A stretch of 64,000 nucleotides of DNA from Escherichia coli. Its GTDB lineage: Bacteria; Pseudomonadota; Gammaproteobacteria; Enterobacterales; Enterobacteriaceae. Both the position numbers and the translations under genes were made by a program. The notes under the pieces are model-generated. The model saw only the letters and a list, made by a program, of their open reading frames with translations, did no database searches and was not told where the DNA came from. Position 1 is the stretch's first letter. Each line of letters begins with the position of its first letter. Below, in pieces: positions 3,888-16,508 of the stretch. The DNA is taken from NCBI RefSeq assembly GCF_044324785.1, contig NZ_CP172127.1. One strand, written 5' to 3'.

Positions 3888-4667
3888 TTAGTAGCTGCTG
3901 GCGCTCTTACCGTCGCCGTGACCCAGCGCTTTCAGCAGGCTTGCCAGCAGGCTGGAAGCACCAAAGCGGTAGTGACGCGCATCAGCCCAGTCAGCACCGA
4001 ACAGTTCATCTGCGATGGCGAGATATTTCTGCGCATCTTCCGCAGTACGCACGCCGCCCGCCGGTTTGAAACCAACGGTTTTTTCTACGCCCATATCACG
4101 GATCACTTCCATCATGATGCGCGCGCTTTCCGGCGTCGCGTTCACAGCCACTTTACCGGTAGAGGTTTTGATGAAGTCCGCACCCGCTTTGATGGAGATT
4201 TCAGACGCTTTACGGATCAGCGCTTCGTCTTTCAGTTCGCCGGTTTCGATGATCACTTTCAGCAGTACATTCGCTGCCGCGCAAGCCTCTTTACAGGCTT
4301 TCACAAGGTCAAAACCAACCTGCTCGTTACCCGCCATCAGCGCGCGGTACGGGAACACAACGTCAACTTCATCAGCACCGTAGGCGATTGCCGCACGGGT
4401 TTCTGCCAGCGCGATTTCGATGTCGTCGTTACCGTGTGGGAAGTTGGTTACCGTAGCAATACGGATTTCCGGGGTGCCCTGCTCTTTCAGCGTTTTGCGA
4501 GCAATTGGGATAAAGCGAGGATAGATACAGATAGCGGCGGTATTGCCGACCGGGGTTTTGGCCTGATGACACAGAGCAATTACTTTCTCGTCGGTGTCGT
4601 CGTCATTCAGGGTGGTCAGGTCCATCAATTTCAGTGCACGCAGGCTGCTTGCTTTCAGATCAGTCAT
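3888..4667 (-). CDS. deoC: Deoxyribose-phosphate aldolase DeoC (259 aa)
   Basis: Protein [52 protein letters not shown]...; start at internal ATG 4667..4665 with AGGAG Shine-Dalgarno. Confidence 0.95.
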
Positions 4668-7312: not shown

Positions 7313-7432
7313 TGCCGGATGCGGCCTACAGTTCGGCACAGACTTGTAGGCATGATAAGACGCGTCAAGCGTCGCATCAGGCATTGTGCGCCAACTGCCG
7401 GATGCGGCGTGAACGCCTTATCCGGCCTACGG
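7313..7432. repeat. REP/BIME cluster between yjjW and yjjV
   Basis: Several gccggatgcggc...cgccttatccggcctac REP units in alternating orientation. Confidence 0.8.
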
Positions 7433-13986: not shown

Positions 13987-15018
13987 ATGTCTGCATTTAC
14001 CCCGGCAAGTGAAGTCTTGCTGCGTCACAGTGATGATTTCGAACAAAGCCGTATTCTGTTTGCCGGAGACTTACAGGATGACCTGCCCGCGCGTTTAGAT
14101 ACCGCGGCCAGCCGTGCTCATACCCAGCAATTCCACCACTGGCAGGTGTTAAGCCGCCAGATGGGGGATAACGCCCGTTTTAGTCTGGTCGCCACGGCGA
14201 ATGATGTCGCAGATTGCAATACGCTGATTTACTACTGGCCGAAGAACAAACCGGAAGCCCAGTTCCAGTTGACGAATTTACTTTCTCTACTGCCGGTGGG
14301 CACGGATATTTTTGTCGTTGGCGAGAACCGCAGCGGCGTGCGCAGCGCCGAACAGATGCTGGCAGATTATGCGCCGTTGAATAAAGTCGACAGCGCCCGT
14401 CGCTGTGGCCTCTATTTTGGTCGTCTGGAAAAACAGCCGGTATTTGATGCCGATAAATTCTGGGGCGAATACAGCGTCGATGGCCTGACGGTCAAAACGC
14501 TGCCGGGCGTGTTTAGCCGCGACGGTCTGGATGTCGGTAGCCAGTTACTGCTCTCGACGTTAACTCCGCACACGAAAGGTAAAGTGCTGGATGTCGGCTG
14601 TGGCGCGGGCGTGCTTTCTGTTGCCTTTGCGCGCCATTCACCGAAAATTCGTCTCACTCTGTGCGATGTCTCTGCGCCAGCGGTAGAAGCCAGCCGCGCA
14701 ACACTTGCCGCCAACGGCGTTGAAGGTGAAGTCTTTGCCAGTAACGTCTTTTCCGAGGTGAAAGGTCGTTTTGATATGATCATCTCCAACCCGCCGTTCC
14801 ACGATGGGATGCAAACCAGCCTCGATGCGGCGCAAACGCTGATTCGCGGCGCGGTGCGTCATCTTAATAGCGGCGGCGAGCTGCGAATTGTAGCGAACGC
14901 CTTCCTGCCTTATCCGGACGTGCTGGATGAGACATTTGGCTTCCATGAAGTTATCGCGCAAACCGGGCGCTTCAAGGTGTATCGCGCCATTATGACCCGC
15001 CAGGCGAAGAAAGGTTAA
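13987..15018 (+). CDS. rsmC: 16S rRNA (guanine1207-N2)-methyltransferase RsmC (343 aa)
   Basis: [35 protein letters not shown]... with SAM-binding [12 protein letters not shown] and NPPFH motifs. Confidence 0.9.
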
Positions 15019-15032
15019 GTATCTGGCACCTG

Positions 15033-15080
15033 TCGCCGCATACCGTGTCGGATGCGGCGTACACGCCTTATCTGACCGAC
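15033..15080. repeat. REP-like palindromic unit downstream of rsmC
   Basis: gtcggatgcggcgtacacgccttatctgac resembles a single REP unit. Confidence 0.55.
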
Positions 15081-15148
15081 AAACGAATTATCCACAATTC
15101 GCTGATGGCCATTTTTCCAGCAATTACACCTCTGTCGATAATTAACTA

Positions 15149-15176
15149 TTGACGAAAAGCTGAAAACCACTAGAAT
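15149..15176 (+). promoter_or_regulatory. Sigma70 promoter for tRNA-Leu
   Basis: TTGACG (-35, 15149..15154), 16-bp spacer, TAGAAT (-10, 15171..15176), then a GC-rich discriminator gcgcctcc typical of stringently controlled stable-RNA promoters; about 40 nt upstream of the tRNA. Confidence 0.7.
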
Positions 15177-15217
15177 GCGCCTCCGTGGTAGCAATTCTTT
15201 TTAAGAATTGATGGTAT

Positions 15218-15304
15218 GCGAAGGTGGCGGAATTGGTAGACGCGCTAGCTTCAGGTGTTAGTGTCCTTACGGACGTGGGGGTTCAAGTCCCCCCCCTCGC
15301 ACCA
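15218..15304 (+). tRNA. leuQ: tRNA-Leu (anticodon CAG), 87 nt including CCA
   Basis: gcgaaggtggcggaattggtagacgcgctagcttCAGgtgttagtgtccttacggacgtgggggttcaagtcccccccctcgcacca: long-variable-arm type II tRNA with CAG anticodon and encoded CCA end. Only one copy is present. Confidence 0.95.
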
Positions 15305-15342
15305 ATTATCTTTACTTCCTTTCTTGTTGCTTCCCTGTTTTA

Positions 15343-15579
15343 TCATCCCTGCTTCAAATTCATTATCATCAGCATGATGCCAGCAATAAGCGCCAGGCAC
15401 GATGGCAGCAAAACGTAATGCCGCAACTGTTTGTGATACAGCATCACCGGCGTCAATACTAATCCCATCAGAATGATAATCCGCCATTGATCCGGCGATA
15501 AATCCGCATACATCAGCCCTGCAATCAGCAATCCCGGCAGCAACACTCCCCAGCCACTGCCCAGCGTACGTTGCAACAT
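15343..15579 (-). CDS. yjjZ: DUF1435 small membrane protein YjjZ (78 aa)
   Basis: Protein MLQRTLGSGWGVLLPGLLIAGLMYADLSPDQWRIIILMGLVLTPVMLYHKQLRHYV...; internal ATG chosen; divergent from fhuF across the Fur-box region. Confidence 0.7.
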   Translation of the reverse strand: MLQRTLGSGWGVLLPGLLIAGLMYADLSPDQWRIIILMGLVLTPVMLYHKQLRHYVLLPSCLALIAGIMLMIMNLKQG

Positions 15580-15597
15580 GGTTTCATCTCTTTCATT

Positions 15598-15713
15598 GAT
15601 AATGATAACCAATATCATATGATAATTTTTATCATTTGCAAGCCAGAGAAATCCCTTGCTATCGGGTAAACCTATCGCTAGGATTAGCAATCATTATCAT
15701 TTAGATTACTATC
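15598..15713. promoter_or_regulatory. Fur boxes in the yjjZ-fhuF divergent promoter region
   Basis: gataatgataaccaatatcatatgataatttttatcatt (15598..15636) and gcaatcattatcatttagattactatc (15687..15713) match the Fur consensus GATAATGATAATCATTATC as overlapping hexamers. Confidence 0.8.
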
Positions 15714-15719
15714 ACGATT

Positions 15720-16508
15720 ATGGCCTATCGTTCCGCACCGCTCTATGAAGATGTTATCTGGCGAACGCATCTCCAGCCGCAGGATGCTGGGCTTGCACAA
15801 GCCGTACGGGCGACGATCGCCGAACATCGTGAACATTTGCTGGAGTTTATCCGTCTGGATGAACCCGCACCGCTCCGTGCCATGACGCTGGCGCAATGGT
15901 CATCACCGAATACGCTAAGTTCTCTACTGGCGGTCTATTCCGATCATATCTACCGCAACCAACCCTTGATGATCCGCGAGAACAAACCGCTGATCTCACT
16001 ATGGGCACAATGGTATATCGGCCTGATGGTGCCACCATTAATGCTGGCGCTACTGACGCAGGAAAAAGCATTAGATGTGTCGCCGGAACATTTCCATGCT
16101 GAGTTTCACGAAACCGGACGCGCCGCCTGTTTCTGGGTCGATGTGTGTGAAGATAAAAACGCAACACCACATTCGCCGCAGCAGCGAATGGAAACGTTAA
16201 TCAGCCAGGCGCTGGTTCCGGTTGTGCAGGCACTAGAAGCGACCGGAGAGATCAACGGCAAACTTATCTGGAGTAATACCGGTTATTTGATCAACTGGTA
16301 TCTCACTGAGATGAAGCAACTGCTCGGCGAGGCGACGGTTGAATCGCTGCGCCATGCCCTATTTTTTGAGAAAACGCTCACGACCGGTGAAGATAATCCA
16401 CTCTGGCGTACCGTGGTGCTGCGCGACGGCCTACTGGTGCGCCGCACTTGCTGCCAGCGTTATCGCTTACCGGATGTGCAGCAATGTGGCGATTGTACGC
16501 TGAAATGA
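15720..16508 (+). CDS. fhuF: Ferric-siderophore reductase FhuF (262 aa, 2Fe-2S)
   Basis: ORF MAYRSAPLYEDVIWRTHLQPQDAGLAQAVRA... with C-terminal C-C-x10-C-x2-C cluster motif (RRTCCQRYRLPDVQQCGDCTLK). Confidence 0.9.
   Translation: MAYRSAPLYEDVIWRTHLQPQDAGLAQAVRATIAEHREHLLEFIRLDEPAPLRAMTLAQWSSPNTLSSLLAVYSDHIYRNQPLMIRENKPLISLWAQWYIGLMVPPLMLALLTQEKALDVSPEHFHAEFHETGRAACFWVDVCEDKNATPHSPQQRMETLISQALVPVVQALEATGEINGKLIWSNTGYLINWYLTEMKQLLGEATVESLRHALFFEKTLTTGEDNPLWRTVVLRDGLLVRRTCCQRYRLPDVQQCGDCTLK

Follow-up and report, generated by a model that had tools for sequence, protein, structure and literature searches.

A single-gene allele of the leuQPV tRNA-Leu(CAG) array in Escherichia coli

The evolution of tRNA genes in E. 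coli has reportedly been studied before (Withers et al. 2006), and the leuV operon of strain K-12 is reported to be under growth-rate and stringent control and to be activated by Fis (Pokholok et al. 1999 and Opel et al. 2004, as referenced in PMC5137449). In K-12 MG1655, this operon comprises three annotated genes, leuQ, leuP, and leuV (b4370-b4368), separated by spacers of 28 nt (leuQ-leuP) and 34 nt (leuP-leuV); the spacer sequences of the array are AAAACCACGTTGATATTGCTCGCACTGG and AACGAGGCGATATCAAAAAAAGTAAGATGACTGT. The leuQ and leuV genes are perfect 87-bp direct repeats, lying 236 bp apart from start to start, with a third repeat between them that is one base off. Direct repeats of this kind are deleted by RecA-dependent unequal exchange or, at short spacing, by RecA-independent replication slippage. 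Transcription of the K-12 array ends in a Rho-dependent manner, and the transcript is processed by RNase P, PNPase, and RNase II (PMC2190699).

The number of genes for this tRNA differs among published E. coli genomes. For CTG-Leu, McDonald et al. 2015 (PMC4539685, Table S1) list four tRNA genes in MG1655, two in EDL933, and three in Sakai. The effect of removing such genes was described by Raval et al. 2023 (eLife, PMC9981150), in whose work deletions of redundant tRNA genes in MG1655, including leuVPQ, slowed growth in rich media. The same deletions were often beneficial in poor media, and the remaining gene copies did not compensate for the loss.

The tRNA-Leu gene and its surroundings

The DNA analyzed here, referred to as the window, is a 64-kb stretch of an E. 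coli genome. ARAGORN, applied to the whole window, detected a sole tRNA gene, an 87-nt tRNA-Leu with the anticodon CAG, and the tRNA fold, with its long variable arm, was accepted by both ARAGORN and Rfam (RF00005, 48.5 bits compared to a gathering score of 29). The gene encodes its own CCA end (...CACCA). It is identical to leuQ and leuV of K-12 at 87 of 87 positions and differs from leuP only at position 48, which is C in the window gene, leuQ, and leuV and T in leuP. The features of the locus are listed in Table 1.

Table 1. Features of the rsmC-fhuF region in the window, with coordinates, strand, and basis of assignment.
Feature	Coordinates	Strand	Basis
rsmC, 16S rRNA m2G1207 methyltransferase, upstream neighbor	13987..15018	+	343-aa ORF; annotated rsmC in colinear E. 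coli loci
Single degenerate REP-like element, rsmC-leu intergenic region	15033..15082	.	Alignment with K-12 and 22AR0750
Upstream promoter region of leuQPV type, presumed to hold a UP element / Fis sites	15102..15148	+	Identity to K-12 save 15109; function inferred from leuV-promoter literature
Sigma-70 core promoter, TTGACG/16 nt/TAGAAT	15149..15176	+	Promoter scan, 10/12; 100% identical to K-12
Discriminator GCGCCTCC and leuQ-type 5' leader of pre-tRNA	15177..15217	+	Identical to K-12 leuQ leader
tRNA-Leu(CAG), leuQ/leuV type (C48)	15218..15304	+	ARAGORN, RF00005, K-12 alignment
leuV-type 3' trailer, starting ATTATCTTTACTTCC	15305..15342	+	Matches K-12 leuV trailer
yjjZ, DUF1435 small membrane protein, convergent downstream neighbor	15343..15579	-	78-aa ORF; same offset in relatives
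fhuF, siderophore-iron reductase, marking synteny beyond yjjZ	15720..16508	+	262-aa ORF; annotated fhuF in relatives

In the promoter scan, the core promoter was the top promoter-like site of the region. All sequence features of a stringent-type promoter are present, namely near-consensus -35 and -10 hexamers, a 16-nt spacer, and a GC-rich discriminator placed directly after the -10 hexamer. The whole segment from 15102 to 15217 matches the K-12 leuQ upstream region base for base, the only exception being position 15109. The sequence-only reading had proposed a single tRNA-Leu copy between rsmC and yjjZ behind a stringent-type promoter; the first point was borne out by ARAGORN, Rfam, and the matching synteny, and the second agrees with the promoter and discriminator sequences. 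The start coordinate given in that reading, 15149, falls on the first base of the -35 hexamer.

On the basis of this identity to K-12, the promoter would be expected to be inhibited by ppGpp/DksA and activated by Fis. The transcription start site and RNase P cleavage at 15217/15218 are likewise predicted by carrying over the K-12 work (PMC2190699). Downstream of the gene, the trailer is identical to that of K-12 leuV over the first 24 nt following CCA. A trailer variant, ...CTTGTTGCTTCC, is common to the window, to WB61 and LH85-a (one copy each), to WP4-S17 (two copies), and to N3 (three copies). A search for an intrinsic terminator 3' of the tRNA gene gave no terminator-like site on the + strand, in agreement with the account of the K-12 operon (PMC2190699), and the single-gene transcript is presumed to be terminated by Rho.

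Alignment with K-12 identified the locus as the leuQPV site: rsmC lies upstream, yjjZ and fhuF lie downstream, and the promoter and leader are those of leuQ. The three-cistron architecture with its ~28- and ~34-nt spacers is absent, the window locus consisting of the leuQ leader, one tRNA gene, and the leuV trailer in a contiguous arrangement. A search of the full window for the two K-12 spacers, tolerating three mismatches, detected neither of them, and no remnants or relocated copies of the lost tRNA-Leu genes were detected elsewhere in the 64 kb by ARAGORN or by the same spacer search. Since a leuQ leader is joined to a leuV trailer and both spacers are gone, the locus is the exact remainder after removal of 236 bp between leuQ and leuV. 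The three tandem copies in K-12 to which the sequence-only reading referred were confirmed from the MG1655 annotation.

The intergenic region between rsmC and the tRNA gene also varies. The element listed in Table 1 (GTCGGATGCGGCG...GCCTTATC) is one that, from its sequence and from general knowledge, we take to be a REP. In the alignment, K-12 carries ~77 nt more REP/BIME sequence at this place than the window, and according to the alignment spans, other strains differ from the window by +68, +77, or +101 nt. Further upstream, a match to the Rfam family naRNA4, a nucleoid-associated, REP-derived sRNA, was noted on the minus strand at 7349-7427 (76.6 bits).

The window does not derive from any of the 5,426 complete E. 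coli genomes searched; around the locus, the most similar of them was 22AR0750, with 98.3% identity over 16 kb. Of the loci compared with the window, only 22AR0750 exceeded ~97% identity, and E. whittamii, likewise single-copy, is thereby ruled out as its source. For positions 39001-64000, coverage of at least 80% was reached in only 28 of these genomes, the best being N3 with 99.2% identity over 25 kb; N3 carries three tRNA-Leu copies at the locus. This distal part contains an hsd "immigration control" region with a type I restriction-modification system, DUF262/GmrSD, a pentapeptide-repeat protein, and iatD. The flanks of the tRNA gene (14418-16184) vary across E. coli strains: the upstream 800 nt, comprising the 3' end of rsmC and the intergenic region, diverge by 2.5-5.6%, and the downstream 880 nt, comprising yjjZ and the 5' end of fhuF, by 0.8-4.9%. 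This unusual polymorphism fits a location beside the immigration-control region.

Between yjjZ and fhuF, the AT-rich intergenic sequence at 15596-15641 contains overlapping promoter-like sites on both strands, and its GATAATGATAA/TATCATT repeats resemble Fur boxes; expression of fhuF is iron-regulated.

Copy number in E. coli and related species

The frequency of the single-copy state was determined with a 207-nt query (window 15158-15364) composed of 60 nt of leader, the tRNA gene, and 60 nt of trailer. Full-length matches to this query were obtained in 424 of the 5,426 complete genomes (7.8%); in multi-copy genomes, the alignment covers only 71% of it. Queries spanning the leuQ-leuP and leuP-leuV junctions both gave 4,999 genomes. 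A local BLAST control showed that megablast bridges the unrelated 28- and 34-nt spacers at ~82% identity, and the junction queries therefore count only genomes with at least two tandem copies, irrespective of spacer type.

Queries consisting of a spacer only were found in 4,739 and 4,944 genomes. The corresponding shortfalls of 260 and 55 are only upper bounds for two-copy genomes, because spacer SNPs can destroy the 28-mer seed. With longer queries, 508 genomes showed at least 80% coverage in one place, and the 84 genomes exceeding the 424 are mostly two-copy loci with joined alignment pieces, some three-copy loci being included as well. Queries specific to two-copy loci were also bridged, and their identity bands gave only approximate numbers, ~75 genomes of the P-V type and ~25 of the Q-P type, which roughly fits the figure of 84. 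Two-copy loci were seen directly in at least 23 cases among the matches listed.

Overall, three (or more) copies are present in ~90% of complete E. coli genomes, two copies in ~1.5-2%, and one copy in 7.8%. The single gene was confirmed in the RefSeq annotation of 22AR0750, ST648, WB61, O157:H7 NE122, TUM9803, and LH85-a. All O157:H7 loci inspected were single-copy except that of TR01, which has two copies, and O157:H7 Sakai RIMD 0509939 and other O157:H7 genomes behaved as single-copy in the searches. The single-copy allele is an already known, common, and annotated polymorphism.

Some O157:H7 genomes contained three to five places matching the tRNA-Leu query, compared to two in other single-copy strains. 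It is possible that extra tRNA-Leu copies are located elsewhere in these genomes; the published counts for EDL933 (two) and Sakai (three) differ as well. The two-copy locus of TR01 (NZ_CP033605.1, 5535533-5535966) represents either an early-branching intermediate or a re-expansion. In E. coli N3, the second and third copies (3948-4033 and 4068-4153) are 86 nt long, with seven C residues instead of eight, probably a homopolymer sequencing error of the assembly.

For the outgroup survey, the RsmC protein of the window was used to fetch the loci of 80 Enterobacteriaceae species representatives, each of which was scanned for tRNA genes. Informative contigs, reaching at least 200 nt beyond the array, were obtained in 69 cases; the other 11 end in or at the array, a site at which draft assemblies break repeatedly. 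Three copies downstream of rsmC were found at 65 of the 69 informative loci, in species and genera including E. albertii, Citrobacter, Klebsiella, Kluyvera, Raoultella, Enterobacter, Lelliottia, and Kosakonia, with a first spacer of ~28 nt and a second of ~30-34 nt. Two copies were present in K. pneumoniae ATCC 13883 and in a Pluralibacter MAG (2/69), and one copy in E. whittamii and Enterobacter sichuanensis (2/69).

The T48 variant of the middle copy is common to K-12, other E. coli, Escherichia sp. MOD1-EC7003, and E. albertii. Together with the conserved three-copy arrays of the outgroups, this places the origin of the array before that of E. coli. Three copies are the ancestral state, and with three-copy outgroups the single copy of the window is a loss, not a failed expansion.

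Two records of the survey deserve mention for other reasons. In Kosakonia oryziphila, the middle copy (4315-4400) was called by ARAGORN as "tRNA-???" with a defective anticodon loop; either a pseudogene or a sequencing error could account for this. A record titled "Chryseobacterium sp. 18061" contains an Enterobacter-like rsmC-leuQPV locus, its RsmC being 85% identical to that of the window, and contamination or mislabeling is likely.

Origin and persistence of the single-copy allele

The best explanation, to which a probability of about 0.9 is assigned, is that the window carries a real one-gene form of leuQPV, derived from an ancestral three-gene array by deletion between direct repeats. According to this explanation, an array of three 87-bp tRNA-Leu(CAG) genes would have lost 236 bp internally, corresponding to two gene-lengths and both spacers, by homologous recombination or replication slippage between the repeats. 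The remaining gene would thereby have kept the promoter and leader of leuQ and acquired the trailer of leuV. The deletion may have been a single event (leuQ with leuV) or a pair of events with a two-copy allele in between, and it may have arisen in the lineage of the window or have been imported with flanking DNA from another single-copy strain. Base C48 of the surviving gene fits a direct leuQ-leuV event, and it is also compatible with two successive events such as those to which the two-copy alleles attest. Loss through recombination between tandem copies had already been suggested by the sequence-only reading; the joined leader and trailer, C48, and the three-copy outgroups are all consistent with that suggestion.

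Two-copy alleles occur in both possible forms, the P-V spacer being retained in strain 167 and the Q-P spacer in WP4-S17-ESBL-08. The two-copy strain WP4-S17-ESBL-08 and the one-copy strain LH85-a have identical protein accessions for RsmC, HolD, YjjZ, and FhuF, which indicates that copy number changed inside one haplotype. In neighbor-joining trees built from the two flanks of the tRNA-Leu gene (upstream, 800 nt; downstream, 880 nt), single-copy alleles occupied at least three separate positions among three-copy haplotypes. ST648 and TUM9803 clustered with K-12 and O111:H8, and in the upstream-flank tree, O157:H7 and WB61 were placed near N3, with the window, 22AR0750, and LH85-a near O25b:H4. 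The occurrence of single-copy alleles on several flank haplotypes suggests that the deletion recurs, that the allele spreads between lineages by recombination, or both.

Two alternative explanations concern the reality and the direction of the change. Tandem repeats are a known hazard for genome assembly, and the 11 of 80 draft or species-representative contigs that end in or at the array show that it is troublesome for short-read assemblers; the strain could accordingly possess three (or two) copies, with the 87-bp repeat collapsed and the spacers dropped. This is very improbable. The problematic assemblies break at the array and do not silently skip it, and a collapse would have required that two unique spacers were lost and that the outcome coincided exactly with the allele of 424 complete genomes, many of them closed. 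The same allele is present in the closed genome of 22AR0750 (99.1% identity over 321 nt) and in LH85-a, which is colinear over 16 kb, and within the window, uninterrupted sequence extends from the gene for 15 kb upstream and 48 kb downstream. It could also be proposed that the single copy is ancestral and that the three genes of K-12-like strains arose from it by tandem duplication. Bacterial tRNA genes do duplicate in tandem (PMC7661048, PMC10954465), and E. whittamii is likewise single-copy. However, conserved spacer lengths in the three-copy arrays of 65 of 69 informative species from many genera, as well as the middle-copy T48 in E. coli strains, Escherichia sp. MOD1-EC7003, and E. albertii, leave this proposal with almost no credibility.

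A third alternative accepts the deletion described above and concerns its persistence. The deletion need not be neutral or mildly harmful and simply carried along by drift in clonal lineages; the low copy number might be kept by selection, the halved tRNA-Leu(CAG) dosage being favored in nutrient-poor or slow-growth niches. Losses have occurred repeatedly, affecting E. whittamii, Enterobacter sichuanensis, and several flank haplotypes within E. coli. Nearly all O157:H7 loci seen are fixed for the allele (TR01 having two copies), and tRNA deletions in MG1655 including leuVPQ slow growth in rich media and tend to raise it in poor media (PMC9981150). On the other hand, a few clones dominate the counts, and the value of 7.8% therefore reflects few events; moreover, all three copies are retained in ~90% of E. 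coli and in 94% of related species, a pattern indicative of purifying selection for the complete array. Maintenance of the low copy number by selection is considered unlikely. The more specific proposal that the recurrent change from three copies to one serves as an adaptive dosage switch, as opposed to neutral decay, is regarded as quite doubtful. If it were true, nutrient-limited lineages would gain from making less of the cell's most abundant tRNA, and the tandem repeats would make such a switch frequent and possibly reversible, in view of the two-copy state of O157:H7 TR01.

Gene dosage and comparison with known arrays

For the deletion allele, transcription would proceed from the unchanged growth-rate- and stringent-controlled promoter and give a monocistronic precursor. 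Rho would terminate this precursor, RNase P would cleave its 5' end, and exonucleases would trim its 3' end, with a yield of one tRNA per transcript compared to three. With no change in promoter, discriminator, or leader, the gene should be regulated like the K-12 leuV operon. These expectations regarding expression, processing, and dosage are derived by analogy with K-12.

If leuT is present elsewhere in the genome, as it is in relatives, the strain would have two genes for the CUG reader compared to four. In single-copy relatives, only two matching places per genome were found (three to five in some O157:H7), namely the locus and one other, the latter presumably being leuT. With only two such places, no compensating copy is evident in these relatives. 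By analogy, a lower supply of tRNA-Leu(CAG) at high growth rate is likely.

The feature is real yet ordinary, being a known, common, and recurrent deletion allele of a tandem tRNA array. Hundreds of RefSeq genomes already have it annotated, and published tables show how it affects the number of tRNA-Leu(CAG) genes. The reduction from four to two genes for the CUG reader concerns ~8% of complete E. coli genomes, and for tAI and for predictors of codon adaptation or growth rate, the tRNA copy numbers of K-12 should not be assumed for all E. coli. The locus also provides a clean natural case of repeat-mediated tRNA gene loss, with three-, two-, and one-copy states on related haplotypes. As the array often breaks draft contigs, copy number at this site should be read only from closed or long-read assemblies.

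When compared to known systems, the window shares with the K-12 leuQ-leuP-leuV array (leuV operon) the chromosomal site, the core promoter, the discriminator, the leader, the leuQ/leuV-type tRNA, and the leuV trailer. It differs from that array, which has three cistrons, 28- and 34-nt spacers, T48 in leuP, and ~77 nt of additional upstream REP sequence. The two-copy strains (167, WP4-S17-ESBL-08, O157:H7 TR01, and others) are products of this repeat-mediated type of deletion and carry it at the leuQPV site as well, with the difference that two genes and one spacer are kept.

The ΔleuVPQ derivative of MG1655 (PMC9981150) resembles the window in its lowered tRNA-Leu(CAG) gene dosage at the locus and offers the only experimental read-out of such a loss. 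In that derivative, however, all three genes are gone and only leuT is left, whereas the window keeps one gene together with its promoter.

The single-copy alleles of O157:H7, ST648, WB61, 22AR0750, and LH85-a have the same structure as that of the window, with the leader, one tRNA gene, and the leuV trailer between rsmC and yjjZ. Over the 207-nt core, the window is 100% identical to WB61 and 98.6% identical to O157:H7. The flanks of these single-copy strains differ from those of the window by 2.5-5.6% in the 800 nt upstream and by 0.8-3.5% in the 880 nt downstream.
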